From assembly GCA_003971905.1 (NCBI GenBank), contig RSEE01000010.1, forward strand, positions 868,001-932,000: 64,000 nt of DNA. The letters are read 5' to 3'. The position numbers were made by a program, and so were the translations under genes. Positions 27,451 to 48,989 of this stretch are shown here, piece after piece; the stretch's first letter is position 1, and each line of letters starts with the position of its first letter. Below the pieces are notes generated by a model. It ran no database searches. It was given only the letters and a program-made list of their open reading frames with translations, and was not told the DNA's origin. The stretch comes from Moniliella sp. 'wahieum'. Taxonomy: Eukaryota.

Positions 27451-28298
27451 ATGATGAATGTGCGTCGCTCCCGACCCTCGCCAAGGACGTTCGGTCGCTG
27501 ACCCCCTTCCCCTTGTTCGCCGGCAGATTTGGCAGCTGAAGGCCAAGGAGGAGGCCAAGAAGAAGAGCGCCAAGACGTCGCCAGCGCAGCTGCGTGCCCA
27601 GAAGGGTATGCCTCCCCCTACTCGTATCCTTGCTGCCCTAATCAAGACTCACTGACGTTTCCCTCTTCCTCGCCTGCCTCCAGATGTTTCTGAGCTGGAT
27701 CTGCCCCCGACAATGCGAACCGTGTTCCCGGACCCGGCTGACCTGATGCACTTTAAGCTCTTTATCACTCCCGACGAAGGTAGGTTCCCCTCTCTTTGCG
27801 CTGCTTGGCCCTGTGCGTGGCTCTGATGCACCCCTCTCCCCCAGGCATTTACAAGGACGCTACCTTTGAGTTTGACTTTACCATCTCGACCAACTACCCC
27901 CACCAAGCGCCCAAGGTCAAGTGCGCCAACAAGATCTACCATCCCAACATCGACCTCGAGGGCAACATCTGTCTCAACATCCTGCGTGAGGACTGGAACC
28001 CCGTTCTGAACCTCAATGGCGTAATGGTCGGACTCCAGTTCCTCTTCCTCGAGCCCAATGCCGACGACCCTTTGAATAAGGGTACGCCCCCCCTCCCCCC
28101 TTCTTCAGGAGCGCCTCCACTGACTATCTGATAGATGCCGCCGAGGCCCTGCGTCGCGACAGGAAAGCGTTTGCAAGGGATGCCCGGGCTTGCCTCAGTG
28201 GCCGATCGCTACGTACGTTGGCTACCTTGTTTGTCTTGCCTTCCTAGCCCGTTCTAACCTTTCCCCCAGGCGGCGTCACCTACGACAAGCTCCTTTGA
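27451..28298 (+). CDS. UBC12: NEDD8/Rub1-conjugating E2 enzyme
   Basis: [67 protein letters not shown]; five canonical short introns. Confidence 0.93.
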
Positions 28299-28631
28299 TA
28301 TTCCTCTCCCTTGCGGCAGGAGAAACCTCTTCCTTGGTTGGTGCACACCGTACCTCCATCCGCATTTACTTTCCTACGTGTGGGTGCCTTCTTCCCTTCG
28401 CCCCTTGAGATAGGAAGCTGCTAGCTATGCATGCAGGCAGAGCAGGGTGGCCCATATGACAAGCAGTGATATTACCGAGCTTACAATCTGTGCGGAGCTT
28501 GTCCCTGGATGGACCGAGCCCCTCTGGGGCTCAGCTAGAGTGGCGAGGGGAACGGGGCAAGTCAAGGCGCCGAGTCGGGCCCGCAGTGCATCGTCCCAGT
28601 GGGTAATAGGGGAACAAGAGCCAACCAGGGT

Positions 28632-29211
28632 CTAAGCAAAGGACTGAGCTGCGGCCGAGCACGCCTTGAGTTGTTCCAAGTAGTACGCACAGGCGTTCGT
28701 GTCGTTGTTGGTCGCCTCAAAGCAGCGCAGGAGATCTAACCGGGCAGACAGTTAGCCATTGTCATTCGCACAGGCCAATCCACTCCAAATCCAAGTTCAA
28801 ATTCAAAGCAAGCAGGGAGCACGTACCTTTGGACTGCGCTTCGCATGCGGCGCCCTTGGTGGCGTCTTGGGCATTGTAGCCCTGGGCCCAAGCGGCGGGC
28901 TGTTGCTCCTGCTGGGGGGCAGGCGCCGGCTCCGAAGAAGAGGAGCCGCCGCCAAAGAGCATGTTGCTCAGCCCGTGACCAACGGTGGACCCGACCGCGA
29001 CACCTGCCGCGGTAGAGGCCATGTTAGCAAACAGACCGCCGCCGCCCATGCTGGGCTGGGCCATGGGAGGTGGCGCAGCCTGGTGCGGGGCGGGGGGCGG
29101 GGCATGGTGCTGCGGGGGCGGGTGGTAGGCCTGGGTAGAGGCGCTGCGGGAGCCCGAGGGCATGCGCGAGGAGGGCGAGGGGCGAGAGCTGGAGCGGCCG
29201 CCGCGGGGCAT
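28632..29211 (-). CDS. MIX17: Mix17/CHCHD2/CHCHD10 mitochondrial twin-CX9C protein
   Basis: [54 protein letters not shown]; one intron; TATA-like TATATAA about 75 bp upstream. Confidence 0.92.
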
Positions 29212-29646
29212 GGTGAGTAAGTTGGAGAGTGGAAGGTGGAGGGGGTGCGGAACAAGGCGGTGGCGGGGCGGGGCGGGGGGGGTTATATAGGCCGGCGGGC
29301 CACGGACCCTTCTGCTCTCGTTCCGCGCCGGGCTTCTTCCAGCGCCTTCGGGCGCTTCGCCTGCCTCATTAACCGCTGCTGCTCCGGCCGACGTCCACTA
29401 GCCACTGCCTAGTCCCGCCGGCCTGCGCATTACTAATTCCGCTTGCTCCGCCCCGAGCCCCGTGCCAAAGGGAGGTCACGTGCCCCAGCTGAGGTCAGCA
29501 CTGTCAGCTCCTTTTTTTTTTCGAGCCATGCTCCTCTCCGACAGAGGCTATGCTGGACATGCTAGCTTAGTCGATAGCTAGCCAGCCACACCGATTGGCT
29601 CCCGTGCCGTCCTCACCCTCGCCTGGTTGCTCCTCACCACCCCACC

Positions 29647-30021
29647 ATGCCCAAAGCTGGCAAGCTCACCCGTACGTCCCCTCCTCCCGCCCGCCTGGCT
29701 CCGCCTGACCATCTGTTGCCTCTCTTCCTCTCTTCTCTCTAAGGCGCGGAGCGCAAGCAACCTGCGCCCCACCCGACCATCGAGGCCGACGCTGCCCAGG
29801 CAGAGGCCCAGCCCAAGCCCAAGCCCACGTCTTCCGAAGCGTGGACGAGCAGTGTGCAGCAGGCCAAGAAGAAAGGTGCCAATCGGAAACGCGGCTCGCT
29901 GTCCTCGGTCGCGGCGCGCGCCAAGCGCGAAAAGGCTCTCGAGCGCCAAGATCGGCTGAACGCCAAGAAGAACAGGAAAGAAACTCGGCTAGCACGCAAC
30001 CAGGCGGGACGCGGGGAATGA
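29647..30021 (+). CDS. Small basic protein, possibly an Alb1/Ecm1-like 60S biogenesis factor
   Basis: cccaccATG, intron 29672-29743 (GTACGT..CTGAC..TAAG), K/R-rich SSVAARAKREKALERQDRLNAKK; family assignment is tentative. Confidence 0.55.
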
Positions 30022-30051
30022 ACGGTAAGATCGGACAGCTTAGGTTGGAAG

Positions 30052-30088
30052 GGCATGGCATGGCATGGCATGGCATGGCATGGCATGG
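30052..30088. repeat. (GGCAT)n pentanucleotide microsatellite
   Basis: About 7 tandem GGCAT units between convergent 3' ends. Confidence 0.9.
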
Positions 30089-30155
30089 AATGGCGGTGGT
30101 TGATGGGGACAAATGGGTGCATGTGGGGAAGGGAGGGCAGGACGTGGGGTACGGT

Positions 30156-32208
30156 TTACCATGCCAGCAGCGGGGCAACAACGAACGTCAGCAGAGACAA
30201 CAGGTCGTCCAGATCGTCCGAGGAGATGAGCAGAGAGGTGGGACCGAGGCAGGGCACAGGGAGGCGTTGGAGGCGGTGACAACGGGAGACCGTCCAGCGC
30301 AGGCGGTCGAGTCGGCCTGAGCCTCGCGGGCTCCGGTTGATCTCCCCCGAGGCGGGCGTGATGCGAGGTAGGCCCAACTGCTGCAAGGCGCGATCGGACC
30401 AGGACCAGGAAACCCACCCGGCTGGCACACGCCCTGACCAGGTCGGATACGAGTACAGCTGCGCGACGGCCTAGTGCGGTGTAAGAAATAGGTTGCGCGG
30501 GGCATCGTCCACCTGTACCCCCTCCGGCGGGCGGAGATGGACAAGGCGAATTTGCAGAGGACAATGCGCATGCGACCAGGAGAAAAGGCTGTTGCGAACT
30601 AACAGACGACCATTCCCCAATCGTTTTCCTTGGCGTCCATACACGCCCAGCGTCAGGCCAGAAACGTACGCCACAAAGCCGTCTTGGCCAGTGCGGAAGA
30701 AGAAAGGGTAGTTTTGAACAACATGGTGGTGTTGCCGTTACCAAAACTGATTACTAGCGTCTGGCTGGGCGGGTCGAGCGAGACAATGTCACATTGTGTA
30801 GAAGGACTTTGGGGAAACCACAATGCTAATGTTATTTCCCATCCTGAAGGCAACAAGAGGAGACAACGTACCTTGTCTATCGTGGCTACTCGTTCAACCA
30901 AAGCGACAGGATCCTTCGCTTGGAAAGTAAATTCAATCTGTTACGTCAATGGCTTTTGCCCCCGAGGACGGCCGTCAGGGTGCACCATGCCTTGCCCTAA
31001 GCTCCAGATGGGCGCACCTGTGACAAAACGTACCGTACTGCTCATCCTCCCCCAACGCGGAAAAAAAGAGATAGGTACCATCAAAGCATGGGTTGCGCAA
31101 GTTCCGCACGTTCCGCACGCTGCGGTACCTAAACCTTCGTTAGCTTCTCCTTTCCACAGTCGAGAATGCAAGAAGAGAACGTACAATGACCTGCGCAAAT
31201 CCGAGGGGAGGCCACCACAGTCGTCTGGACCTGCTCGTCAGTTTCGACATTATAGATGCGGACTTCTTTCCCGGTCCATCTAGTCCAACGGTTCAGTGGC
31301 TGCAACCCAGCAGACATAGAAGGGGCAACGCACCTTGCCAAGAGGGGCGGGGTAAACGTACGCATCCCCACAGCAAATGGGAACGTGGCGAGTTTGACAA
31401 AGTGGCCGGGGCGAGGGGAGCGGCCGAGGCGGTGGTGGGACAGGTAAGTTTCCAAGTGGTAAAAGGTAGTGCTGGGGGGGCCGCGCCGGGTGCGAGGCGT
31501 GAGCGCAATGTACCCTTTCGGGTGGGAGAGCTGGAGAGCACGACTGTGTCCCGCCTGCTGGGGAGATGGGCGAGGAGGTGTGCACGGGGCCCTACGACCA
31601 ACAGCGCGAGCGGAACAGGATCGTGGTCCGACCAAGCCGTGTCCTGGTCCGCGGTGGGAACCGAAGTGAGGAACCAATATCCACAAGCCATCATGCATCA
31701 TCATGCATCAAACTCGCCGGGCGAAGGAAGACTGGCGGGGTAAAATGTGGGCCATGGGTGGTGGGTCTGGGGCGCGACGAGGCGAGCGCGGGCAACAGGA
31801 GTGTTTTTGGTCAGATCAAAGCCTAGCTGCTGCTCGACCAGGGTTGTGGTACAGGAGACCAAGTGGCGCCATGTCCGGAAGTGCGTCAGCTGCTGCGCAT
31901 CGGACAACGTCTGGCTCGGGGCGGCAAGCTGCCAGCGGAGCACGAGCGTGTGCCACAGCGTGTCGTCGAGCGTCACGGCATGCCAGCCTAGCCAGCACAG
32001 AGCACGCGCGTGAGCCTGGCCGTTCAGCCTGACCCTCTGAGTTCAGGCCGCTCAGGTTGAGCGCTCCCAGGGGTGGCGCACCCGATTCCGAACCCAGCCC
32101 AAGCACACACGCACCTTGGCACACCGCTGCCACATGGGCCAGGTCGCTGGCACTGAGAACGCCTGTCGCGCCAATTTGCACACACACCTCGTACGGCAGA
32201 CTGGCCAT
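30156..32208 (-). CDS. F-box domain protein; frameshifted, 3' end uncertain
   Basis: MASLPYEVCVQI..LSASDLAHVAAVC..LDDTLWHTL F-box pattern; probable intron after the first exon. Confidence 0.65.
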
Positions 32209-32691
32209 GGCGGCCTGGGATAGAGGGGAAAGCGGCAGTGGTGAGATCTGAGATGGTCAGACTGGGGCCAGTCAGTGCTAGCGGGGGGGTACTGTACCCC
32301 GCAACCCCATTGCCAGGGGTCGCGTGAACAGCAAGCAAGCCAGGATCAAAGTAAAGCGTTCATGTGACAATTCATTGTCAGCTTATCGTAACCCCGTCTT
32401 CGATTCATCTACAATCCCGGCGCCCGAACAATGCCAGCTGATTGAGTTGATCGGACCATCGCCCACGTCCAGGACCGCAGTCATCGATGGCAAAAGGGAA
32501 CCAAGTGTGGATTGCACAAGTAGGCAGCCAGTACAGACGCACTTTTTACCAACCCACAACCACGGGCTTTTCGGGACTACATAGATGAAGCAGTTACAAT
32601 CAGTACCGGCGCGCCGCAACGACGCCACGGTGACGCGTTGCGCGATACGACGCGTCACGCGCGTCACGCGGCATGCGGCAAGCTTCAAGCA

Positions 32692-32722
32692 CATGCATGA
32701 TGCATCATGCATCATGCATCAT
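32692..32722. repeat. (ATGCATC)n palindromic heptamer repeat
   Basis: catgcatgatgcatcatgcatcatgcatcat; related copies at about 31690-31710 and 32863-32894. Confidence 0.85.
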
Positions 32723-33099
32723 AGCACGTGACGCGTGGCGTGGGCGTGCAAGATTTCGCCACTTGGTAGTACCCGCTGTAACAGTGTTACACTAAATCCA
32801 ACAAGTGGGGAGAGGGGTTCTCGAAGCAAGGGCACCCCGACTGGTCGCTGAGACTCAGCAGCCATGCATCGTGCATCATGCATCATGCATCATGGCCGCC
32901 CCCTCTGAAAAACGAGTGAAGGGGGGGTGCCTCGGGATGCTCGCTCGCTCGCCCGCCAGAAAAAGTTTGTGCGAGAAAAGGGGGGCTGGGCATGCCAAGG
33001 GTACATTTCAAGTTTGGTAAGGTAATCGAGATCATCGATCATCGACTTCCAGCTCACCAAGCGGCAAGTCCCGGCGAGGGCAGTTCGGGTGTGTGACAT

Positions 33100-33124
33100 G
33101 TGACCGGTGACCGGTGACCGGTGA
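33100..33124. repeat. (GACCGGT)n palindromic heptamer repeat
   Basis: gtgaccggtgaccggtgaccggtga. Confidence 0.9.
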
Positions 33125-33349
33125 ATATGAATACGAATGAGGAGCTCGAGGAGGTGGATGAGGTCATCGACCATCCATCCCATCAGCCCTTGAATTGCAG
33201 GCCCCCTCGCCTTGGCCTCCTCTCTCCTCCCTCTCTCCTCCGCCCGACCCCCGATGCCAAGCACCGATCGCAGCCCTGTTCTCCACTGTTCTCAGGGGGG
33301 GCAGAGCCTACTTGGTGCATCGCGCCACCCAAGTTCGACTCGTCAATCG

Positions 33350-33381
33350 CTAGTTACTAGTTACTAGTTACTAGTTACTAG
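33350..33381. repeat. (ACTAGTT)n palindromic heptamer repeat
   Basis: ctagttactagttactagttactagttactag. Confidence 0.9.
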
Positions 33382-34581
33382 CACTCTCCGAACGGCCTGG
33401 CCCAGCCTAGCCCCCCCCAGCCCGGGTGCCTGGCCCTGGGGTGCGGCAGGGGCGGCGTTTCAATATCGGCTGAGGCTGGCTGAGGCTCAGGCGCTCAGGG
33501 CTGGCTGAGGTGCTGGCTGCTAAAGGCTAAGTAAGCGCCAAGCTAAGCGTCCACTCTCGGCAACCAAGCTAAGCCATGCTGAGTGCTGTGCTGTGCTGAA
33601 CTGGGGCTGGATGCGCGAGACGATGCAGAGTGACTCGGTGACTCGGTGCCGGTGACTAGTGACTAGTGACATTGCCATGCAGGACACCATCCAGTTCGAG
33701 GCTGCGCGGTTCGCATCCGCGTCCAGCCACTTAGCAACTCATTTTTAGTAGCCAGTCGCCGCTCTCGAGCGTCCGCCGCATCAAAGTCCCCCGAGCGCCC
33801 AGCGCTGTCAATGGGAACGTTGCCCATCCGTACAGCGTGCCCATAGCGCTCCTTAGGCGTGGCTGGACAGCTGCTCTCTGGGCGCTTCCAGTTACTAGTT
33901 ACATGTTACAGGAGCAGCTGGGAGACCTATCAAGCTTCACGCGATTCAACCGCCTTGGGCTAGGAAAGCAGGCCAATCTACCATTACCACGCACAGACCA
34001 ACCCCCCAGCCGAGGTCCAGAGAAAAAAGATGGTACGGTACATTCAAACAAACAAATAAGAACCGTCTGAGCGCCAGCGCTCCAGACCAGCAACGAGAGG
34101 TATATGCTGAGAAAATACGGGGGGACGAGCGGAGAGGAGAGCGAGGTACGGCGAGCCAGGCATCCACAAGCTCCACGGGAGCTAGCGAGCGGTCCAACGC
34201 CCGCCTGGTGAACCGCACCGAGAAACGTGACTAGTGACGGGTCCCAGGACGGGTGCGAGGGGGCCAGCTCAGGTCATGGTCATGGGCGCATGCTTGAGAC
34301 TTGAGAGCCGAGGCACAGCGTCCGAGACAGGGCGATCCAATCCAGCGGGGGGAAGACAAAGGACAAAGCGAGGAGTGCGGGAAGCGATGGGGGGAGAGGG
34401 GGGGGCGATGCGAGACGTATGAAGCAGAGACATGGGATGCGAGAAAAATGCAGACCGGGGCGGGGGGGGGTGAAGGGCGTGCGTGCGGAGGCACGCAGAG
34501 ACCCATGGCGGTCATGGATAAAAACAAGTGGGAGAGCGAGGAACCGAGGCTCAGGGACAGAGCGCAACAAGTGACGAGGCG

Positions 34582-34809
34582 CTAGCTCCGCATCGTCCTG
34601 CACCGTGCATCGGCCGGATCGCACACGGGCCCCGTGTGCCTCGTCGTTGCACTGGGGTGCTGGTGCAGGTCGTGCACAGTTTGTTTCGGCAGCGCAGGCG
34701 CGCGGCTAACCGGACGCGCATTGACCAGGTCCGCGTCGCAGAAGACACAGATTCCTGTCCCGGTGCGCGTCACGTGTCCGCACTCGGCGCAGACAGCGTA
34801 CGTCGTCAT
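34582..34809 (-). CDS. 75-aa microprotein with N-terminal CxxC-x10-CxxC zinc ribbon
   Basis: MTTYAVCAECGHVTRTGTGICVFCDADLVNARP; acaaccATG context; canonical 5'UTR intron 34816-34916; TATAAT at 35111-35116. Confidence 0.65.
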   Translation of the reverse strand: MTTYAVCAECGHVTRTGTGICVFCDADLVNARPVSRAPALPKQTVHDLHQHPSATTRHTGPVCDPADARCRTMRS

Positions 34810-34815
34810 GGTTGT

Positions 34816-34916
34816 CTGGGGCGGAGCAAGGGCAGAGGAGGGTTAGCTGAGCGTGGCGGGGAGGAGGCAGACGCGGCCAGGGGGGGGGGGGGGACGTGCG
34901 GCAAACACCAACTTAC
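34816..34916 (-). other. Predicted 101-nt 5'UTR intron of the 75-aa zinc-ribbon gene
   Basis: GTAAGT donor (34916), GCTAAC branch point (34847-34842), pyrimidine-rich tract, CAG acceptor ending 6 nt before ATG. Confidence 0.7.
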
Positions 34917-35128
34917 GGAGAGGAGGCGGCGGAAAGTGGAACGAGGTGGGCGGGAGAAGAGCGCGGTGGGCAAGAGCAAGACGTGCTGTAGAGGAAGCAG
35001 CAGCGTCAGGGAGCAAGCAGGGGCGTCGGCGTAGGAGCGAGCAAGCGCAGAAGCGGTGGGTGGGTGGGGGGGGGGGTAACAATGGGGCGGGGAGCGGGGT
35101 GGGGGTGGCTATTATATCCCCGGGCGGC

Positions 35129-35162
35129 CGTTGAACGTTGAACGTTGAACGTTGAACGTTGA
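35129..35162. repeat. (AACGTTG)n palindromic heptamer repeat just upstream of the TATA-like box
   Basis: cgttgaacgttgaacgttgaacgttgaacgttga. Confidence 0.9.
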
Positions 35163-35906
35163 CCGGTGCAGGCGCAGGGCCCCGATTCGGCGCGGTGGCA
35201 GCAGCGGCGATTGGGGCGATGCTGGCCGCTGACAGCCAAGACGGCCGGCCCAGGCAGGCAGCTCGCCAGTGCCCACAGCCGGCCACGTTGCCGGCGCGGA
35301 CACTGCCCCCCTGCCGCCCATGCCGCCCCCCCCATTATGCATTAGAGCGAGGCGCCGCCAGCGGGGGGCACCGCAGCGGGCACCGCAGCACAGGCGCGGC
35401 TGCAGCAGCGCCTGCGCAGGCGCATCTGATGGGTGATCTTAGCATGCCGCGGATGCGCAGTGGCAGTGCGCAGCGGAATATGCTCAGGCTCACGCGTCAC
35501 GCGTCATGCGTTGCCTGGGGGGTGCGCTGGGGAGGTCACCCGTCTGACATGGCAGCGCATGCTGGGGGCGGCGTGGGGCGGGTGGTGCGGCGTGGTGCGG
35601 CGTGGTGCAGCGGTGGGGGCGATGCATGGGGCCATAGGGCGCCGCCGGCAGGACCCCCATGCCAAGAAGCGTCATCGATCAGCCAGTGGTGCCACTCGGG
35701 GGCTGCGTGCATCGCATCGTCAGTACCAGGCAGTACTCAGTTACTCAGGCTGCTAAGCGTCACAGCCGCTCTCGCACCCTCGAGCAGCTCGGCCGTCCAC
35801 GGGCAACCCCCTGAGCTGGGCCTGCGTCATCGATCATCCGGGTCAGCCACCCATCGAGTCGCAGCCATCGCAGCCACCGGTGAACCAGCGGCATCCATCG
35901 CCAGCG

Positions 35907-35929
35907 CCATGGACCATGGACCATGGACC
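35907..35929. repeat. (CCATGGA)n palindromic heptamer repeat
   Basis: ccatggaccatggaccatggacc. Confidence 0.9.
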
Positions 35930-38900
35930 AGCCCGACCCCATTAGGCCAAGCAGGCAAACAGGCGCTGTGGAAGGCGCGAGTGCATCAGCGCGCTTACCT
36001 ACTCATAATCGCATCCATCTCCATCCATTCCTCCGATCGATGACTGAGCACGGCGCAGTGAACATTGCGCGTCGCGGCGGGGCGGAGCCTCAGCACGCAG
36101 CGCACGCAGCGCTGCGCCGCAGGCACACCCCGTCCCTAGGCAAGCTTCTCGTGACTACTCGAGTGACGACAGTGACTACGACCTACTCCACCTCCTACTA
36201 CCTGCCCCTATGAGGATGCGCTCTCGTTTGCCACAGTAGCGTGCGCCCCAGCATGGCGCCGCACACGACAACCCCACGCCACATCAAAAAGTGGGGGACG
36301 CCAACGCCGAGAGACGAGAGCAGTCGACCTGCGAGGGGGCCCTCCCCCGCCCGCGACGGTACAGACGCAATGAAGGACAGAGCGAGAATCAGGGGCTCCT
36401 GCCCAAGTCGTATGCTCCAAAGTGGTGCTCACCACCATGGCCAAAGTGGAGTAAGGATTGATGCACACATGGCGGGGATGTGGTCCTGCTCGTTTCCCCA
36501 GCTCAGCACTCACATGTCAAAGCGCTGGTCAAACGTGAGCCCTTCTTTGTCGGGGCTCCGCGCATCCACATCCCGCATCACGTCACCGGCGTCACCGCTA
36601 TCCTATCGTGCTCGTGATGGCGCTCTCCCTTGCGAGGGGTGGAGCAGGACGAATATAATAGCTCAAGTATATACCCCGGCCCCGCTGCAATGCTCCACCG
36701 GCCGCCACATGTCTGTCGTATTCTATGTACGTGCCCCCGCAATGAGAGGACCTAGATTCTAACGCGGTGCCCCGTGGTCGGATGGCCATGCCCCGACCCA
36801 CACTCACAAGTTGGCTCCGGTGTGGAGCCCAGACAGACACTGAGTACTGAGATCGGAGAAGCGAGGCCTGGGAAACTCCTACAGTTGTTGTAAGGAAGAA
36901 ATGCAAAACGACGTTGTCTCGCCATGGTATTAGAGCCCCGGGCATCAACATTCAATCCACTACGCCACAAAGTGAAGCTGTTGGAGCACACATGCGCATG
37001 GACGCACATATGCTGTGGGGTGCGGGAGGTGGGGGGGAGTGGAGACACAGAAAGGAACGTCTCCCCTCTCCGCATTGGCTCCCAGATCTCACTACCTGCG
37101 CGCCGTAGCACTTTTGGGATCGATGACAGTAGTGACTGCGGTGCGTGCGCCTCAGCCTCTCAGGAGAAGCGTTAGTTGAATGTTGAGGCGTTGAGCCAGC
37201 AGAGGGCGGTGAACATCCCCTTTGCCCCACCTAGTCAGTAAGGTAGTTTGGGCTTTGTATTGACTTGGCTGGGAGACTGCCAACGGAGGAGCGACCCGGC
37301 TCCACCATTAACAAGCTTCTTACGCGTCGCGTTAATTCTGAGTCAGTACCGGCGCCGGCCGACGGGCTCCGAAAAATTGCCACTTTTCCCCCCGCTCCGC
37401 CGACGAAAACCGGCGTAGACAGCAGCCCCGAGAGCAAGTTATCGATTATCGAGGCATGCCGACATCCGGCCGTGAGATCTGAGACGCGTGAGAGCCTGTG
37501 AGAGCTTAAGGAAGCGGCTAGTCATTAATAGAAAGGCTCTCGCATAGTGTTATTCCTCATAGCACCGCCATTCTTCCACAGGTCTTCTTCGTTTTGGGAC
37601 GTATAGCGCCGTAGCGTGCGTCCATCACTACAGAACAACAGTCCAACGGATCTCAACACCACTGGCTCAGACATCTGTTCTGGAAGGCACATGTCCGCGT
37701 TGTGGTCCCCGTGATACGTGTTCAAACCTTGAGTTATAACGCAGTGTGGGGACACCCCAGGTGGGACCAAGTGGAGAACCCCGGTGTTTCGGAGGGAGAC
37801 TGGGTCGTGTTTATACGGACTAGAAGTGACTATAGTGACAATGTTGACGATATAGTGACTATACAGGAACTGCGGCCGATGTAGGAAAGCGGTGCCGCCG
37901 CGGAGCGGGACCGGCAAGCTGTGCTCTCTCGCCAGTTGCGTCGTTCTCCTGCCCCACACACGCTCCAACTAGGCGCTCGCAGGATCCACACTCTGTCTTG
38001 TTGACTATATAAAAAATTTACCGTGCAAAAGACTATGCGTGTTTAACGTGCTCGTGTGCTCTCTTCCCTCAGGCCTCAGGCCTCATTAATCATTCAAGAG
38101 GTCCCAGGCCGGCATCCGACCTCAGCCTCAGACCTCAGTCCTCACCAGGCTGAGGTCTTCGGTCTCATTTACGCGTCCCATATGGTTTTTTGCTGTCTCT
38201 GTGTAAAGATCGAACGCGGCCGCACACTGGCTCGGGAAGGATCCGCCGGCTAAATTTCTTCGCTCCGGAAGAGGTTCCACGTCCATGATGCATGCGTTGC
38301 ATCTGTTCATCTTCGTACCCCTCTAGCCCAGCCCTTTTCTCATAAAAAAATTCCGTTCATTCTCCGGCCTCGGGCGGGCGTCCTGCTTTCTTTTCCGTTA
38401 AACCAGTCGCCCTCCTTTTGTGGCATGTGAGGTACCTCTGACCTTCAATTGTTGGGACAGGACTTCAGAAGTATACACCCTATACTCATTGATTGACGTT
38501 AAACCGTCCTTCCTCAGACCACAGCCGTCCTGCCACCACGTTCACCTCTGCCCCGCATTTGTTCTCTAGAAACGGAACCGAGTCAAGGATCGCGTCTCAG
38601 CTCTTCTTCCTATAGTGTGAGCCCTGGACTAACGCTCGTTCTTCATCTTCCTCGATGGACGTCCAGTATGCGGTGGGTGTTACTATCCCCCCCCCCGCGC
38701 GCGCGCGCGGTGTCCGTCCTCCCAGTGCCTTCTTTTCTTTCCCAGGTCATGCATCATGTCGCGTCGCGGCCCTGCCGGTAGTGCGTTCTCACTTATAGTG
38801 AAGACGGTGATATGCTATTAGATAATGCTTTTTTGGGGGGCGCAACAGGAAGGATATAACCAAACACCCTTTTTGCTGCCTAGTAACGAGATTCACTAAA

Positions 38901-41900
38901 TGCGTCCCCTGTAAGCAATGCTTAGAGAGGTGAGGAACCAGGGCGTGCGTACAAGGCAGAGAGGATGAGTAGGGCAGAAAGGCAAACTCTTTGAATCAGC
39001 TCATCCCTACTGCTTCCCTTCTCACTTCTCCATACAACAAAGCTCTCTGTGAGTGGGGCGAGGCAAAAGAGGGGGCGTATAGCACGTGGCCTCCTGTATA
39101 ACCAGGGAGCTCCAAATAAGCACTGGGAACTACACGACAGGAGAACAGGGTATTCGGTGAACGGCTTGATGAGGGGACAGGGGCAGCGGGACTCAACAGA
39201 GAAAAGGGAGAAAGGAGAGAAAGGCATGCCGAACGAACTGCACAGGTTAATACACAAGTCAGGCACTCAGCCGGGTGTACAATCTGCCCCTGTTACTTCC
39301 TTTGGGCGTGGTAGAGAGGTATTGGGCCGTGTGCCAAGTCGAGATGGCGTTGTGAGGCAAATAAATGTACACAAAAAAACGGGTACGTACGACAACCCAT
39401 CCAGGTCGCCTCCAGGAGGTTCTGCTTCCCATCCGAGAAAGGAGCAAAAACCGTGTTCATCGAATGCGCTGCATGGCCGAAGAAACAATACACCAACCAT
39501 CCGGCCGCCGCCCGCGATCGTGAGATGGAGACGATAACGATCGAGGAGAATTCAGGATCGAGAACCCCCGCCACCAACGGCGGGCTCTCTCAGATCTCAG
39601 AACTCACTCATGCTCAGAAATGCCGAAGAGTGGGGACAGGCGGGATGGCTTGCGCCATCGCCAGCGGGGATCCTCAGGATGGACAATATACCCGTCAGAT
39701 AATAAGCTACCCACAATAATAAGATTCACGGCGTGTGGGGTATAGGAAGCTATGAAGCTTATTGAAGAAACAGCCTGTTTCACTATGGCATCTCTCTTTG
39801 CAGAGCGAGACAAGAGCCCAGCGCGGGCAAGACACAGGCGCATTGGCACTTGCACCCTATGTAGTCCCTGCTTTGCGATCGCGCATGGCGGGGGGATTGT
39901 TTGCTTTGACGAGGTACACCCGCGGCTGTGTGTGGCATGGCTCCTATTTTTTCCAGGGTACGTATACACACGTCGCGCCACCGAATCCATGCCGAGATCA
40001 TGCGATCATGCTATTATGCCAGCTATATATATGCCCTGTGTGTGTGTACTGTACTAAAGTACTCCCACCGTCGTCAGGCTGCGGTCGCGGCCATCAAATG
40101 CATCCTACTCGTTGCACGCCGCGACCCCCCTATCCTGATATCTTCTCCGCCACACAGACGGTAGCCTTCGTATTTGATCCGCGATCAGAAAAATTGTCCT
40201 CGTAAAGGAGCCATGTCCCACGGCTATTTCAGTTATACTCCCCCTAAGAGCATCACAGGGGGACCACGTGCCCACGAAGTGGAGCGCAGCTGTGGTTTTA
40301 TGATTCGATCTCTCGTCTATGCACTACGGTCAATGCCCTTTCCCCGGCCTAGGCCGGATCGGCGCTTGCGCAAGGTGAGATCTGTCCCCTGCTCTCTGGG
40401 CTGCCTGAAACCTGAGGGCCCGAGGGCTTGCCATGGATTGCATCATGTGTTGCCCGGGAGCAAGCCAGTCTCACCGACAGACAAACAAATGGCAGTGAAT
40501 CGGAATCGGAGCGTTCGAGACAACGGAAGAGGCATGTGTGGGGTAATTGAACTGTTGGGAAGGATTGCATGCGCGTTACGCATTACAGAGCCAGCCTTCA
40601 GTTCTCCAACTATATACGTTCACGTCTATGATGAAGCATGAAGAATGAATGAAGCTTGAAGATAGAACGCGATGAGGCGGGTCGGCACAATCGGACTTTT
40701 CCACGGGGTCTCTTGAACGTTGCGCCTGGCCACGAGTTCCGTGGGAGAGTGTCTCCATAAGATGACCTCTGCAATGGACGCTTGAGAGGGGGCATGCGCA
40801 GATATAGTGCTTTGCTGTAGTCGTCGGGCAGAGCCAAGCAGCGTCCCAGAAGGAAGAGGTTTTTGCGCACACACGTTATTCATATAGGCCCAGGCGCCGG
40901 ACTTGAAAGCGGGGAGCGCCGATGGGCGAGGAAGGACAAACGAACTGTTGATTGAAAGGTGGTTCTTATAGAGTGGAGTGTCTCAAAGAAGGGGAAAGAG
41001 GGAAAGAAATGCTGGCCAGCTTGTTGGCCATCACCATTTGGGATGTATAAGAACAGAGGCAGGTTTATTCATGAGAAGGTAAAAGACCAACAGTCTACAG
41101 TGTAAAGTGGAAAGGAGTCAGAGGGAAAAGTGAGGACCAAGGACGAAAGGCACACGAGGCGAGAGACGAGGCGAGGGTCAAGGGCATGAATCATCTCTCG
41201 CGAAAGTATACACAGGCTCTCAGGTATATAGGAAGACCAATACAACCTTAGTGCAACAGCTAATGTGCACCACAAGATTGGCTGACGTATATGCGTTGTT
41301 GCATCTCGCGTAGCGCCCCCCCCCCCTGCTAACAACATCAAGAATCATGCTGTATGGGCTGTGATTATTACGTCAATGGATGTTGCCCTCATATAACGCT
41401 GTGAACATCTATGGCTGCATGATTCCTTTTACGTCTAAATCCACTGAATGCACGCTTGGACCTGTGAGACCTGGGCCGAGAGTCTGTCAGGTACGGCCGA
41501 GGTCGCTGTTACTGGTGTGCGTTTGCTTTTTGTTCACATCTCTTTTCTCATCTCCTGCTTCGAATGAATTCTACAGGAAAATGCGCGCACGGAGAATATT
41601 GTACAACGATTGTGAGTTACGAGTTTCCTGATCTGTGCGTCCTGTTATTGTGGTCGCTGGGTGAGGCTCTTCCCTCGGCCTGCCCTTTTATTGTTTGTGC
41701 CTTTTCGCTATCATTTTCCCCATCTCCATCTCTTGTTAATCTGTACCTTCTGCATCTTCATCATTATGTATGCACAAAGGATGACGATAACAAACTGCTT
41801 TCTCTCCGCCATACAACTCACGTCTGCTCTGAGGCCAAAATGAAGCATAGTGGCGATAGCCTCATGACGCCCTGAAGAGGCCTTGGATGTAGTAGTAGTA

Positions 41901-44068
41901 GTAGTGATGGTGGCGGTCTAAAGGCGAAGGAACGAGAGACACCTAATACAAACAGCAACAAGCGATTTCCTGCACGATGGATGCGGAACAACAAGAGGAA
42001 AAACAACAGAAGAGCGGAGGGAAAACATATACTTCCATCAAACTGCATCATGCATGCTGATGTACCGCATAATGTACACTGAAGGCAGAAGAGACCATAT
42101 GTGCTGGGGCACAAGAGACTAGTATAAGAGACTAATATCAACTTTTTCTTCAAAAGAGCTGAGGGAGAACAACCCTAGTTCTCATATTGGCAGTTGGGCC
42201 ATACGTAGACTAGGTGGGGCTAGGCCCTAGCCTACTAGGGTCATAGCTTAGCGCTAAGGTTTAGCCCTCACACATGCATCATACTTAGAGAGCGTATATA
42301 GCCTGCCCTTGCCACTTGTCGTCCGTCACGTTTTCCAAAGATGGGCCAATACCCGCTCCTATACCCTTTTCTGCGTGTTTTGGGCTGAAGCCCATAAAAT
42401 ATAGAAGCCCGCCATCCGCGCGTGCACCACGCGCCGAGACGTAAGCACACCGTACCTGGTGGGAGAAGAGAGCATGTTATGCAAATGACACCACCCAACC
42501 TCTCCCCAGCCCTCCCTCTAGGAGCCTCGGAGCCTCCGCCTCAAATCTGGTAATAAGGACTGTTGGATCATGCATTGGATCATGCATGTCATGCCATCTC
42601 TCAACAGTGCGTGTCAGACTTACTTGCCAGGCGGTGTGTCAGGCAGCGAGGAGCCTGAGGGAATTGGGGTGTTCCAGTGGTGTTCCTACAGTGGCGTGTA
42701 AAATAAAATACCCCCTGCGTAGTGTGATGCTCGCGCGCTGGGGGCGCTCTGCATGACGTGTGTGCTAGATGACGCAAAAGCCGCGTGTTGAAGCTGTGAG
42801 AAGCTTCATCACGTCTCTCGATGGATGTCGGATGGGCCCGGCGAGGAATGGAGATGGGCATGGGCAAGAAAAAGTGCAGTGCAGCTTTTGAAGTCGCAGT
42901 CCGCAGCACCGCGCCGGCTCGCAGTTGCGTACCATCAGCTCGAGAGTGAGTGACACAAGTGACTAGTGACAGGACCGCTATTAGGCTCTTGGAGGACAAT
43001 GTTCCAGTTGTTTAGCTCCCGAGACTGCTACGTAGTCCGAGGGTCTACTAGGCGCTACTATCACGATGCCAACTCACTGGTACTTGCCGTACTTACCCCT
43101 CCCCTCCCCTCCCCTCTTCCTGTCATATATCACCCATCATTCCATCTCCGCCCGTTTCCGCCCCACATCCCACGACGGAGAGTCATCTCCACACTCGCGT
43201 CCCCGCCATCCAACGCTATCGCGGCGTTGGACGTTGCAACGTTCGTTCACCGTTCAGCCTCAGCGTCCCCAACGTCTCATCTCCACCGCCTCATCTCCAC
43301 CGTCTTTTGCCCTCGTTTTCCGCAGCCGCAGCCGCAGACAAGCACAATTGGCGATGGAGGCCGATGCATGATGCTTCTCGGGGCAGCGACGTGGTGACGG
43401 ATGATTCACCCCCGTCACCTGGAAGCTATTTGAAGGTACTAAGGCTTGAAGCTTGAACAGCTTTGGACGCGGAGCTGGCGAACGATGGGCGAAGCAGCAC
43501 AATGGCATGGTGGGCGCTCCTCTCGTCTTTGGCAACAATTATGAATCAACGTTCAACGCTCAACTTGAGCCGTGGGATTAGGAGCTGCGGCGCGACGGGC
43601 CGCGGGGCAGGGAGGCGGTGTGGGGGTGTGGCACCTTCCCAATCGCGCAGCACCCCTTCTCACGTGGGATTGCCACGTACCCTCTGCTACTAATCGTGTA
43701 GATTTGTGGTGCCGAAAACGAAAACGGAAACGGCGCGAGCTGCCGTACGGCCGCAGCCCTGCCTGGCCCCCCTTTTCGTTTGGCATCCCCCGCACTCCAC
43801 AGCGCCACACCCGCACAGCAGAGAGCTGCGTGGAGCAGCTGCGCGCTGAGCCTGCGCCCTGGGGTAACCCGGGGTAACCACACTCGGTTCTCGGCGCCAA
43901 TACGCAGTGCGTCCAACGCGTTGCGCCGCTGAGGGCGCTGGGCGCTGAGCGCTCGCTGAGGCAGTAGCGCCGACAGCTCAGCCTGGCGCCATCGCAGCAC
44001 AGCGTCAGTGTCAGGCGCAGTGCTGTGCACAGTCCCCCCCGCTCCCCCCGGACGTGGCCCCGCGAGTG

Positions 44069-44074
44069 TATAAA
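44069..44074 (+). promoter_or_regulatory. TATA box of the 62-aa zinc-ribbon gene
   Basis: TATAAAGG in GC-rich context followed by a CT-rich leader, about 190 bp before ATG 44264. Confidence 0.6.
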
Positions 44075-44263
44075 GGCGCTCCTAGCGCCCCTCCTCCATT
44101 CTCTTTGTCTGTCCCTGGCACGATCCGCCTCTTCTTTGTTGAGTGCTTTCCTACCGCCGTCCACCCCTGGCTCTCTCCTTCGCTCCCCACCCCGACACAC
44201 CGTGCCTTCTTCACCTCAACCCATCCCATCCCCCCGAGAACCAGCCCCTCCTGCAGCTCAACC

Positions 44264-44452
44264 ATGTCTGGCGGCGTTCAGCTCCGGTGCCCAAACTGCA
44301 ACTACAATGTGAGTTACTACTGGGAGCGGTGCAAGAACTGCGGCTTCTTCCTCGCTTGCCGCCCCGGTGCGCCCGATAACGGTCCCCTCTGGCCCCATCG
44401 CCATCTCGATGACCTCTCCTCGGCCTTGTCACGCGAGACGAAGCATTGCTGA
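44264..44452 (+). CDS. 62-aa microprotein with N-terminal CxxC-x10-CxxC zinc ribbon
   Basis: MSGGVQLRCPNCNYNVSYYWERCKNCGFFLACRPG; tcaaccATG context, mostly C/G-ending codons, upstream TATA. Confidence 0.7.
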   Translation: MSGGVQLRCPNCNYNVSYYWERCKNCGFFLACRPGAPDNGPLWPHRHLDDLSSALSRETKHC

Positions 44453-45049
44453 ACAAGCCCCCTCGCACGCCCCCCCCTTCCACCCTCGATCCACATCCTC
44501 TCAACTTCCTGCATTCACCCAAGGCTGGACCTTGAATCAAGACGTTAGGATGGCTTGCTATCCAACCTTGTTCCTCCTGATCGATGATCCCTCTCGAGGC
44601 AACCCTTCCATCCGCACTCGCCACGCTGCCCCACCGTGTGCGCTTACGCATTCGCCCATCGGGGCACCGGTCTCCCCGCCATTTCCCCCCCCCCTCTCCC
44701 CTTTCCCAGCTCCTCTTTTCTATATCCCTGTGTGCACCACAGGGTCATACCATATTGGCATTGGCGTTAGTGCTGTTCCTCGGGCGTGGCCTTCTCCCTC
44801 ACCTTCCTCCTGATCATTGTTCCGTCTTCCCTCGCATCTGCATTGGTGTCTGCACACCCCACTGTACCTATGTATCACCATGGCACCTTGCCTCTGCAGC
44901 AGGCTTCAACTGAAGCTCCCGCAGAAATGATTGTATTCGTGCCAGTCATGCGTGCCATCAAAACAAACCTTCCTTCTGCTCTGCAAGGGGAAGGGCGTAG
45001 AAAGATAATACAGTAGCAAGATGAGGAAGATGGATGTGAACGGTGCGGA

Positions 45050-46057
45050 TCACAGTGCTGTGTCGTCCGGTTGGGACGCCGGGGTGAAGGCAGAGATGGG
45101 GTAGGTAGCTCCTTGCCAATGCAGATGGGCTGCGACGGCAGATGGACCGTCATCAGGCTCTTCCACCAACTCCAACCGGTCCGCCAGGTGGCGCAGGACG
45201 AGCGAGTCGGACAGGGCGCAGACGGGCATGCCGGCGCGCAAGAGCGGCCGTGGGGACGGGTGGTAGATCCGTCCGGTTTCAGGATGGAGGGTCAAGTGCG
45301 CCGGCTCAAACGGCTCCAATCGTCGGCCTGCCACAAAAGCGACAAGTCACTGGGCGTTTTCGGGCAGGGAACCAGGTCGCGGTACACGACCGCCGTCCCG
45401 TCCGGCTCAATGGGACGGACAAAGTTCAGCTCGCCCATGCAGGGGCTCAGGTACCTGTACCCGGCACGCTGGGCTATGTGCGCCGCACGTTGCTCCACCT
45501 CGGCCTTGGTCGCACTAGGCGAGCTGTGCGATACCAGCTGCTCGGGCCAGTCGTGTCGGTCCCATACCGGGACGCCATCCTGGCCCAGTTCCTCGCCCGT
45601 ACAGCCCAGCGTTTCGACCAGTTCCGACAGAGATGCCGCCGGGTACGGGTTGGGCCTGATGCGGACAAAGAAAAAATCAAGAAAGGCTAGGTCCTTGTAG
45701 CACGTCTGCCAACAGCGGGGCCGCGTCAGCGAGAAGTAATAGCAAAGGGGCTGTGCCCAGGCAAGAACACATAGCAAGCGGGGTGAAGACGAAGCGCGAG
45801 CTGGTTACCTTACCGCCATGTTCTTGACCGGCGTGTCGTGCAGAAAAAGTTGGCCGTGCGCATCGACGGCATAGCGATAGATGCGCACCGGCTCGTCTTG
45901 CCGCCCCGCGCCCGAAAGGGGCACGGCCGCCGGCGGGGGTACGGGGGGGAGGCCGAGGCGGACGCAGTGGAGGACACCATGCGCCCCGCCCACGAAGCGG
46001 CGAGGCGAGGCCAGGAACGGGCGGCGCACAGAGGCGGCCGTGCACCCGCAGCAGCAT
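45050..46057 (-). CDS. UPF0598/C8orf82-like (DUF4505) protein
   Basis: [59 protein letters not shown]; intron at about 45709-45812. Confidence 0.8.
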
Positions 46058-46317: not shown

Positions 46318-48989
46318 ATGAGCCACGGGTTCTTCTTCTTCTCCCGCTCGCCGTCCACCTCCCTTCCCCGCCGCTTGCTCAGCACCTCCGCCACCGCCAT
46401 GAGTGCTGCCCAGCCGCCCTGGCTGCGCCCGCACGCGCCCGCGCCGGTGCCCGTGCCGCTGCGTATGCAGAACAGCCTGACGCGCTCCAAGGACGTCTTT
46501 GTCCCCGTCCGCCCTGACGGCGTCGTGACGTGGTACAACTGCGGGCCGACGGTGTACGATGCGTCGCACATGGGTCATGCACGCAACTATGTGACCCAGG
46601 ACATCATCCGCCGCATCCTCCGTGACTATTTTGGCTTTGACGTGCACTTTGCCATGAACATCACCGACATTGACGACAAGATCATCCTGCGTGCCCGCCA
46701 ACAGTTCCTCCTCACTGAAAACCGTACGGCCCAGCCGACGCTTTGCCCGTCCCTGCTGGACCAGGTCCAGCGCGCGACGACGATGCCTACACGCTCACCC
46801 ACCTTGCCGCCTGGACCACACCGCCGCCGCACGAGTCGACGCCCGATCCCGAAGCCATCTTTGAAGCCGTCCGTGCCGCCCATGCCGCCTATGAGCAGAG
46901 CCCGGGCCAAACACCACTGACCAAGCCGGACGGCACCCCAGCCAACGCCGAGAGCAGCGCCAAGCTCAAGATGCACCTGACCGCTGTCCAGTCGGCGCGC
47001 GATGGCTTGTTGGCTGCCAAGCTGGCACCAGCCGGGGAGGATGCCAGTGCGCTGCACACGGCGGCGGGGGATGTGTTGGCGCCGTACTTGGATGCTGCCA
47101 AGGGGGCAAGCGTGACGGATCCTGCGATTTTCCGCGCCTTGGCTGCCCGGTGGGAAGCGGCATTTTTCCACGACATGGCGCGGCTCAATGTGGAGCGTCC
47201 GACGACCCTGACCCGGGTCAGCGAGTACGTGCCGGAAATCGTGTCGTTTGTGGAGCGGATTGTAGAGCGCGGGTTTGGCTATGCCGACGCGGTGGGCAAT
47301 GTGTGGTTTGATGTGCGTGCGTTTGATGGGGCGGCGGTGGACGCTGTGGCGCAGGCGCAGGTCGAAGGTCAAGCGCCAGCGCAAGAGCAAGAGCAAGGCG
47401 CGTGTGCCAGCACACACAGTGCACCACGTTGCACCACGTGTACGCCAAGTTGGCTCCGGCGAGCAAGACGGATTCGGCTTTGCTTGCCGAGGGCGAGGGC
47501 AGTCTGTCGGTGGGCGCGGCGCAGACCCGGGGCAAGAAGAGTGCAGCGGACTTTGCGCTGTGGAAGAGCAGCAAGCCCGGCGAGCCGGCGTGGCCGTCGC
47601 CCTGGGGTCCCGGCCGGCCAGGATGGCACATTGAGTGCAGTGTCATGGCCAGTGCGGTGTTTGGCCCGAAAATTGACATTCATTCCGGCGGGGAAGACCT
47701 CAAGTTCCCGCACCACGACAATGAGCTGGCGCAAAGCGAGGCGTACCACGGCACGTACCAGTGGATCAACTATTTCCTCCACACGGGCCACCTGCACATC
47801 GAAGGCGCCAAGATGTCCAAGTCGCTCAAGAACTTTATCTCGGTCGACGATGCCTTGGCCCAGTACAGCCCTCGCCAATTGCGCCTCGCGTTCCTCTTCC
47901 AGCCGTGGGACCGCAGGATGGACTTTAGTGCCAAGGCGATTGATGAGGTGCGTCGGTTCGAGGCCGCGACCGACAACTTGTTCCGTACCGTGCGCGCGCG
48001 TGTCTTGGCCGCGCAGCAGGCGGCCGGCTCGGACGCCACAGCGCAGGCCCAAGCGCTCGACCCTCCCCTCCCACCAGCGGGGAGGGCATCACGCATGGCT
48101 ACACGCACCGCGAAAGCAGCTTGGCAGCCGCCTGGGTCGCACCCAGCATGCCGTGCGCCTCGCGTTGGCGGACAACTTTGATACGCCACTCGCGCTGCGT
48201 TTGGTCCGCGACTTGATTGGCGAGACCAACGTGTACCTCGACAGTGGCAGCAAGCCCAACCTGCCCGTGGGGGTGCACGTGCACATGCCCACGCTGCTGT
48301 CGGTCGTGCACTGGATGACCCACCTCTTCTCCATCTTGGGCCTCACCTACCCGTCCCCCATCGAGACGCAGTTTGGCTGGGGCGTTGCGCCGGCGCCGAC
48401 GCGCGCCGAGCGCGACGAGCGGAAGTGACCGCCTCCGCCTCTGCATCCACATCAACGGTCGATAAAGAACAGCTGGTCGCGCCGTACGTGACGCTGCTGT
48501 CGCAGTTCCGGGACGAGGTGCGTGCGCTGGCGCGCACACGAGCCAGCCGCCTTGCCAAAGCAACTGCTGGCGCTGTGCGACCGGGTACGAGACGATGGCC
48601 GTCTGGACGAGCTGGGGGTGACGTTGGAGGACAGCACGACGGGTCCGGCGTTGGTCAAGTTTGTGCCGCCGGCCGAGCTGCGGGCGGCGCGCGTGGCGCG
48701 CGAGCAGGCGGCGCAGGACAAAGTCGCGCGGAAACAGGCTGCGCAACAGGCCGCGCGCCAAACAGTTGGCCTCTGGCAAAAAGGTCGTACGCCCCCAGCT
48801 GACTTGTTCCGCTCCGCCCCCGATGCCAGCACCAAGTATGCCACGTACGACGACCAGGGCATCCCGCTCACCGATGCCCAGGGCGAAGCCTTGTCCAAGT
48901 CGCGCCGCAAGGCGCTCGATAAAGAGTTCAAGGCCCAGGTCCGGCTCCACCAAAGTTTCCTCGAGGCGCAGAAGGCCGGCGAGATCTAA
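46318..48989 (+). CDS. CRS1: Cysteinyl-tRNA synthetase
   Basis: [94 protein letters not shown]. Confidence 0.95.

Follow-up and report, generated by a model that had tools for sequence, protein, structure and literature searches.

Does a long stretch of apparently gene-free DNA in a basidiomycete genome conceal two small zinc-ribbon genes? The question arises in a 64,000-nucleotide piece of Moniliella sp. 'wahieum' contig RSEE01000010.1 (positions 868,001 to 932,000 of the forward strand; hereafter, the window), where two short open reading frames (ORFs), P1 on the minus strand and P2 on the plus strand, point away from each other with 9455 nt between their ATGs. Each encodes, close to its N-terminus, two CxxC knuckles with ten residues between them (Table 1). 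A first-pass annotation had described the pair as diverged paralogous zinc-finger microproteins that share a very large upstream region. The coordinates, strands, lengths and peptides that it gave for both ORFs are borne out by the sequence, as are its remarks that the CxxC-x10-CxxC motif has its first cysteine 6 (P1) or 8 (P2) residues after Met, that an RP dipeptide stands 7 residues (P1) and 6 residues (P2) past the last cysteine, and that both tails contain His. We conclude, with moderate confidence, that P1 and P2 are real, lineage-specific genes for stand-alone zinc-ribbon microproteins in this Ustilaginomycotina fungus.

How unusual is the cysteine pattern? A six-frame scan of the window for CxxC-x(8-14)-CxxC uninterrupted by stop codons returned two instances, P1 and P2, and both have the x10 spacing. 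For comparison, the 64-kb window was simulated 200 times with a first-order Markov model. Two or more x10 motifs appeared in 4 of the 200 simulations, and two or more x10 motifs lying at most 12 residues from a Met appeared in none (0/200), odds that are optimistic because the pattern was picked after inspection. In P2, agreement with the zinc-ribbon consensus extends beyond the cysteines, with CPNC...CKNC followed by GFFL.

The DNA in front of both ORFs has features expected of a transcription start and leader. On both strands together, the window contains 1952 ATG-to-ATG intervals, and the two longest of these ATG-free runs end exactly at the P2 and P1 ATGs. Each ORF also has a TATA-like box upstream, in agreement with the first-pass annotation. 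The pattern TATAA[AT] occurs at just 15 sites in the window (both strands), two of which are those of P1 and P2, and the leaders that follow these two boxes are the longest among the 15 sites and are C/T-rich too (0.73 and 0.75). Both ATGs have a CAG 6-7 nt upstream and a common CAACC-ATG context, and they account for 2 of the 5 occurrences of CAACCATG in the window on either strand (2.5 expected; a count of 5 is reached in 9 of 100 shuffles). A sense-strand C-rich tract lies at most 450 nt upstream of 21 of the 24 exon-like clusters in the window, compared with 43% for random positions, and P1 and P2 each sit inside a tract of this kind. Finally, tandem copies of the heptamer TCAACGT abut the P1 TATA box on its upstream side, and a shorter array, in the same orientation relative to the ORF, lies upstream of P2. 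The shared array is suggestive at most, because period-7 microsatellites are common in the region.

Base composition by codon position points the same way. The G+C content at codon positions 1/2/3 (GC1/2/3) is 0.63/0.60/0.77 in P1 and 0.55/0.52/0.77 in P2, next to 0.62/0.43/0.73 in the 2673 codons of Pfam-matched segments on which our codon-usage model was trained. GC3 therefore exceeds GC1 and GC2 in both ORFs, as it does for the real genes of the training set. A GC3 of 0.77 falls in the top 9.5% of the 201 ATG-initiated ORFs of 50-100 aa in the window, and it equals the maximum reached by the 50 other such ORFs located between 30 and 45 kb. The difference between GC3 and GC2 is 0.17 for P1 and 0.25 for P2, against 0.03 (sd 0.09) for ORFs of the surrounding gene desert and 0.30 for the training set. 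The frames that run past the P1 and P2 stops show no coding periodicity, which argues for genuine stops or, failing that, against any long coding extension.

We infer the transcription, translation, zinc binding and function of P1 and P2 from these sequence features. Each ORF would be transcribed independently, from its own TATA-containing promoter, into a short mRNA of ~0.7-0.9 kb. The transcript would begin with a long C/T-rich leader lacking upstream ATGs, and the leader of P1 probably holds a 101-nt intron. The first ATG, in the CAACC-ATG context, would then open a protein of 62-75 aa. Its N-terminal 30 residues are predicted to form a single four-cysteine zinc ribbon, in which two CxxC knuckles flanking a 10-residue hairpin would bind one Zn2+, and the remainder would be a disordered, His/Cys-containing tail of uncertain length. 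Such a stand-alone ribbon could act as a small nucleic-acid- or protein-binding module, that is, as a regulator or an adaptor. Because the promoters are of the TATA type, inducible rather than housekeeping expression seems to be indicated.

Which known proteins do P1 and P2 resemble? The closest group is the Pfam DZR/Zn_ribbon set (PF12773 DZR, PF13240 Zn_Ribbon_1 and PF13248 Zn_ribbon_3), whose members are mostly small or repeat proteins of bacteria, archaea and phages. Both ORFs share with it the two CxxC knuckles ~10 residues apart and the small size with an often disordered remainder, and in P2 the resemblance extends to the consensus CPxC...CxNCG and the hydrophobic residues after it. The similarity stays below the gathering thresholds, however: P2 scores 21.0 bits against DZR (cut-off 27.3), 15.0 against Zn_ribbon_3 (cut-off 27) and 12.8 against Zn_Ribbon_1 (cut-off 25), and P1 matches none of the DZR/Zn_ribbon families in Pfam. 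P1 and P2 differ from the group further in that no orthologue was found and in their basidiomycete host, with a eukaryotic promoter and leader. In a search of PDB sequences with P2, all 8 weak matches were zinc-ribbon or rubredoxin-type chains (E 0.2-1). The zinc ribbons of ribosomal protein bL32 (CPNC...CKNCG) and of the RadA N-terminus align to P2 residues 7-29 at non-significant E-values of 0.25-0.6; P2 lacks the remainder of both proteins, and the resemblance is one of fold motif only. In the protein atlas, the best scores for the two ORFs were 0.87 and 0.88, under the 0.9 level taken as a lead, and the neighbors of P2 were Zn_Ribbon_1/DZR clusters (0.86-0.88).

Two further comparisons help to place the pair. 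The RanBP2/NZF zinc finger has the motif W-x-C-x2-C-x3-N-x6-C-x2-C, with a C-x2-C-x10-C-x2-C spacing identical to that of P1 and P2. However, as already remarked in the first-pass annotation, the defining Trp and Asn are missing from both ORFs, and Pfam gave no zf-RanBP match even at E ≤ 10. Closer in general character is Brz of Halobacterium salinarum, an archaeal stand-alone CPxCG zinc-finger small protein that is reported to regulate the transcription of neighboring genes (PMC2253796). Like P1 and P2, Brz is a small, one-domain, four-cysteine zinc-finger protein, intergenic and easily missed, with the kind of role that might be proposed for the two ORFs. Unlike them, it belongs to another domain of life, and no sequence relationship is apparent: P2 has CPNC-N and CKNCG, and P1 has CAECG and CVFCD. 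A regulatory function of P1 and P2 is proposed purely by inference.

Much of what weighs against P1 and P2 being genes is what would favor another account, in which the two frames are open by chance, either in C-rich, promoter- or UTR-like DNA without coding function or within non-coding transcripts; the cysteine pattern would be coincidental, and no functional protein would be made. The codon usage of P1 and P2 is not gene-like. On a per-codon scale on which the null set (the 201 ATG-initiated ORFs above) averages -0.25 (sd 0.20) and true coding windows +0.28 (sd 0.19), P1 scores -0.064 and P2 +0.021, intermediate between null and coding, and neither gets to 10 bits in an exon scan; orphan genes may score low on such a scale because the model was trained on conserved genes. 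Both ORFs sit within 15.4 kb (29973-45373) in which no exon-like segment of at least 18 bits was detected, though such segments were recovered across the rest of the window. C-rich DNA is poor in stops and ATGs, and open frames and long ATG-free runs are therefore favored there. The motif statistics are all post hoc, and 55 of the 200 simulations yielded two or more motifs once the spacing was relaxed to x8-14. The intron-like element in the P1 leader is weak evidence, because the strict pattern GTRAGT..CTRAY..YAG shows no enrichment in the window (5 instances vs 8.3 +/- 3.8 simulated). P1, P2 and any relative of theirs are absent from the protein collections searched: a collection of 5.8 billion proteins held no homologue of similar length for either and none sharing three 5-residue words, and HMMER, run exhaustively for P2 only against 1.84 billion representatives, found nothing at E ≤ 1e-10. 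At E ≤ 1e-3 the latter search returned 8 matches, of which 6 were bacterial-type multi-zinc-ribbon proteins aligning to the ribbon region of P2 (residues 5-31, or 3-49 at the widest), but these E-values are untrustworthy because the other 2 were junk repeats. The best Pfam match of P1, zf-C2HC5 (PF06221), is sub-threshold at 17.2 bits (cut-off 25.8), and its PDB search found no zinc ribbon. Single-sequence AlphaFold2 models have mean pLDDT values (46.8 for P2, 45.9 for P1) too low for comparing folds. Lastly, P1 and P2 cannot be aligned, and share just the cysteine spacing, the start context and the heptamer array. Against a chance origin stand the exact x10 spacing and its position after Met, which no simulation reproduced; the first and second ranks of the ATG-free runs; the rare TATA boxes, identical start context and highest GC3 of the desert, again at both loci; and the agreement of P2 with the zinc-ribbon consensus outside the cysteines (CPNC...CKNCGFFL). 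Because the only two four-cysteine motifs of the window coincide with several mutually independent features of a start region, we hold pure coincidence to be less likely than real small genes, and we regard chance frames as a possible but unlikely explanation.

Errors in the assembly bear on a different account, in which the ribbons are the real coding N-termini of longer proteins and the short ORFs are artefacts of indels in C4/G4 runs or of unrecognized splicing. In the essential TCP-1/CCT gene, the frame changes twice without room for an intron, at 59040-59130 and 59510-59600, one of the changes falling between GFF and YSSAEQ. Indel errors of 1 nt are thus present in the assembly; readings of the window based on ORFs call for care, and the ends and C-terminal tails of P1 and P2 are uncertain, a further point against taking the ORFs as they stand. 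The TCP-1 frameshifts, at least two of 1 nt, lie within a stretch of ~500 nt of that gene, homopolymer runs occur in both tails (codons 1-32, which encode the zinc ribbons, have no C4 or G4 run in either ORF), and from just past each ribbon another frame is open for 141-166 codons (34283-34705, minus strand; 44313-44813, plus strand). These alternative frames, however, have no coding periodicity (GC3 0.56-0.66, not above GC2), no exon-like score and no Pfam match, and C-rich DNA would in any case be expected to contain open frames. The first-pass annotation had also pointed to possible splicing at an internal GTGAGT of P2 (44309) that would remove the second knuckle. Such splicing is not predicted, since no GTRAGT..CTRAY..YAG pattern begins there, and, as we read the sequence, splicing to the acceptor-like AGs nearby would run into a stop within a few codons. 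We consider longer proteins of this kind improbable. Least likely of all the accounts considered here is that P2 alone is a real zinc-ribbon gene and P1 a chance look-alike. Family-level similarity is indeed limited to P2 (DZR at 21 bits and the zinc-ribbon matches), the best matches of P1 reach at most about 17 bits and its PDB matches include no zinc ribbon, and both the codon score and the GC3-GC2 contrast are weaker in P1. Yet it is P1 that has the more elaborate gene-like context: its TATA box adjoins a heptamer array, its C-rich leader is free of ATGs over 511 nt and contains a canonical intron-like element, and its start is CAACC-ATG.

If P1 and P2 are both small zinc-ribbon genes, as we favor, how are they related to each other? 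The first-pass annotation took them for diverged paralogues. BLASTP of P1 against P2 gave no alignment at E ≤ 100, and the DNA similarity of the two loci is not above that of controls (local score 36; shuffles up to 34, unrelated leaders up to 46). The first-pass annotation also saw the 9.4 kb between them as a shared upstream region. Instead, each ORF is served by a separate TATA box and leader, within 200-310 nt, and the spacer is non-coding, with nothing that shows regulation. Neither paralogy nor a shared regulatory region, nor the metal-sensing role that was also suggested, gained support from our tests, and all three are unproven for P1 and P2. A mating locus, another suggestion, found no support in a pheromone-response element cluster, a CAAX pheromone-like ORF, or a receptor or homeodomain match. 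The pheromone-response element ACAAAGGGA has 18 matches window-wide vs 11.9 expected and is not clustered at the locus; no short CAAX pheromone-like ORF was found; and no receptor or homeodomain Pfam domain was found in ORFs of at least 55 aa (33.2-45.3 kb) or at least 110 aa (24-56 kb). The remark that both ORFs would easily be missed by gene callers is apt, as each looks like the first ORF of its own small transcription unit. A more ambitious picture can be drawn, in which P1 and P2 are a co-regulated, lineage-specific, TATA-driven zinc-ribbon microprotein pair with a common upstream heptamer array containing AACGTT; the 9 kb between them, free of protein genes, might then be a non-coding RNA or a chromatin/regulatory domain, and the whole would form a switch-like stress, metal or developmental locus of a kind undescribed in basidiomycetes. 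We give this picture only a slight chance of being correct.

Table 1. Positions of P1, P2, their associated elements and the neighboring genes in the window (position 1 is the first nucleotide of the window).
Feature	Coordinates	Strand	Remarks
P1 ORF	34582..34809	-	75 aa, coordinates including stop; residues 7-24 = CAEC-x10-CVFC, zinc-ribbon-like knuckle pair, then His/Cys-containing tail
P2 ORF	44264..44452	+	62 aa, coordinates including stop; residues 9-26 = CPNC-x10-CKNC, then GFFL
ATG-free run of P1	34810..35320	-	511 nt, rank 2 of 1952; C 46%, C+T 65%
ATG-free run of P2	43542..44263	+	722 nt, rank 1 of 1952
TATAAT box of P1	35111..35116	-	307 nt upstream of P1 ATG
TATAAA box of P2	44069..44074	+	195 nt upstream of P2 ATG
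C-rich tract holding P1	34277-35216	-	same kind of tract as upstream of exon-like clusters
C-rich tract holding P2	43977-44768	+	same kind of tract as upstream of exon-like clusters
C-rich tract 3' of P1 stop	34277..34585	-	possible 3' UTR
C-rich tract 3' of P2 stop	44453..44768	+	possible 3' UTR; converges on 3' end of DUF4505 gene
Candidate P1 leader intron	34816..34916	-	101 nt, GTAAGT...CTAAC...CAG, ends 6 nt before ATG
Heptamer array at P1	35129..35162		4.9 tandem copies of TCAACGT (P1 strand), contains palindrome AACGTT; directly upstream of P1 TATA box
Heptamer array at P2	43546..43564	+	2.7 copies of TCAACG(T/C), ~700 nt upstream of P2; orientation relative to ORF as at P1
P1 homopolymers	codons 51 and 59	-	C4 and G4 runs; tail frame uncertain
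P2 homopolymers	codons 33, 41, 44	+	C4 runs, in tail
Spacer without detectable gene	35163..43545		no exon-like segment, Pfam or Rfam match
DUF4505/C8orf82 gene	exons near 45373-45699 and 45053-45346 (last exon)	-	Pfam
CysRS gene	from ~46.2 kb	+	Pfam
F-box-like gene	31704-32256	-	sub-threshold match, 17.8 bits, split over two frames

Codon statistics, Pfam and Rfam all mark the DNA between P1 and P2 as non-coding. The only Pfam matches in ORFs of at least 55 aa between 33.2 and 45.05 kb were the weak zinc-finger ones of P1 and P2, and Rfam gave no match in 28-46 kb. G+C content is 69% in the microsatellite-rich 35-36 kb segment and ~52% (down to 48-54%) across 38-43 kb, like other intergenic dips. 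The wider 29973-45373 interval is a gene desert by comparison with the rest of the window, where there is about one gene per 2-2.5 kb, and it carries no transposon, RNA-family or protein-domain signal. We considered and rejected a transposon whose inverted ends would be 35116-35148 and 43546-43578, as these arms are the heptamer arrays only and no transposase or reverse-transcriptase domain was found. A centromere was also considered, but the fall in G+C to 48-54% seems too mild by comparison with small fungal centromeres.

Several other features of the region were recorded. Period-7 microsatellites are unusually frequent in 28000-46000 (e.g. 32692-32722, 32863-32894, 33100-33124, 33350-33381, 33652-33670, 35129-35162 and 43546-43564), and some of their units recur at separate sites: CATGCAT twice, TCAACGT twice, and GTGACTA/CTAGTTA variants. 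Within the spacer, a 55-aa ORF on the minus strand (ATG at 37692) is preceded by a TATAAA at 37815 and by 393 nt free of ATGs; it has no C-rich leader, motif or Pfam match and is probably due to chance. The spacer also contains a strict intron-like pattern on the minus strand at 42963-43096, with no coding exon nearby. A likely real intron of the CysRS gene (47312-47419, plus strand) has the form GTGCGT...CAG with no visible CTRAY branch motif. Because of this donor and the missing branch motif, introns here may depart from the strict consensus that we used. Not every frame switch in a conserved gene betrays an intron, since 1-nt indels in the assembly account for some of them, and a view of the genome as intron-rich is to that extent mistaken.

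Neighboring genes were assigned by Pfam on stop-to-stop ORFs (sets of 133, 147, 98 and 13 ORFs; the set of 98 comprised standard-code ORFs of 55-109 aa). The first-pass annotation had placed P1 and P2 between an F-box gene and a C8orf82 gene. The C8orf82 gene is present, whereas the F-box match is sub-threshold only; it is probably the gene that was meant, interrupted by an intron or an indel. The CysRS gene gives an indication of the host's relatives. One of its exons in the window shares 74% identity with Tilletiaria anomala, 72-74% with Malassezia species and 65-70% with Ustilago-type smuts, and 93% with two further proteins, which places the window in an Ustilaginomycotina fungus, as the first-pass annotation had guessed. 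Metagenomes were scanned with neighboring exons. The DUF4505 exon gave 485 pattern matches, 0 of them confirmed. With the CysRS exon, 80 loci were kept (best identities 69-72%), in which tblastn of P1, P2 and the DUF4505 exons gave chance-level matches only (E ≥ 0.2) and no synteny. This negative result means that there was no usable relative among the loci, not that P1 and P2 are absent from relatives. Nor was homology detected between P1 or P2 and the small zinc proteins conserved in fungi (those of the ribosome, RNA polymerase, Tim and the like): no Pfam family reached its threshold, the protein collections held no homologue, and PDB matches had E ≥ 0.2.

What would these two ORFs mean for the biology of this fungus? 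P1 and P2 are probably best filed with a known kind of protein, the stand-alone zinc-ribbon small proteins. To our knowledge, stand-alone zinc-ribbon microproteins are well documented in archaea, bacteria and phages, and rarely described in fungi. The gene-free block of 9-15 kb in an otherwise compact genome is unexplained in itself, and if P1 and P2 are not expressed, they would be a striking coincidence in C-rich intergenic DNA. If they are genes, as we favor, they would represent unannotated eukaryotic stand-alone zinc-ribbon microproteins, and ATG-free leaders, rare TATA boxes and a common Kozak-like context could then be used to flag small genes that both codon statistics and homology miss.

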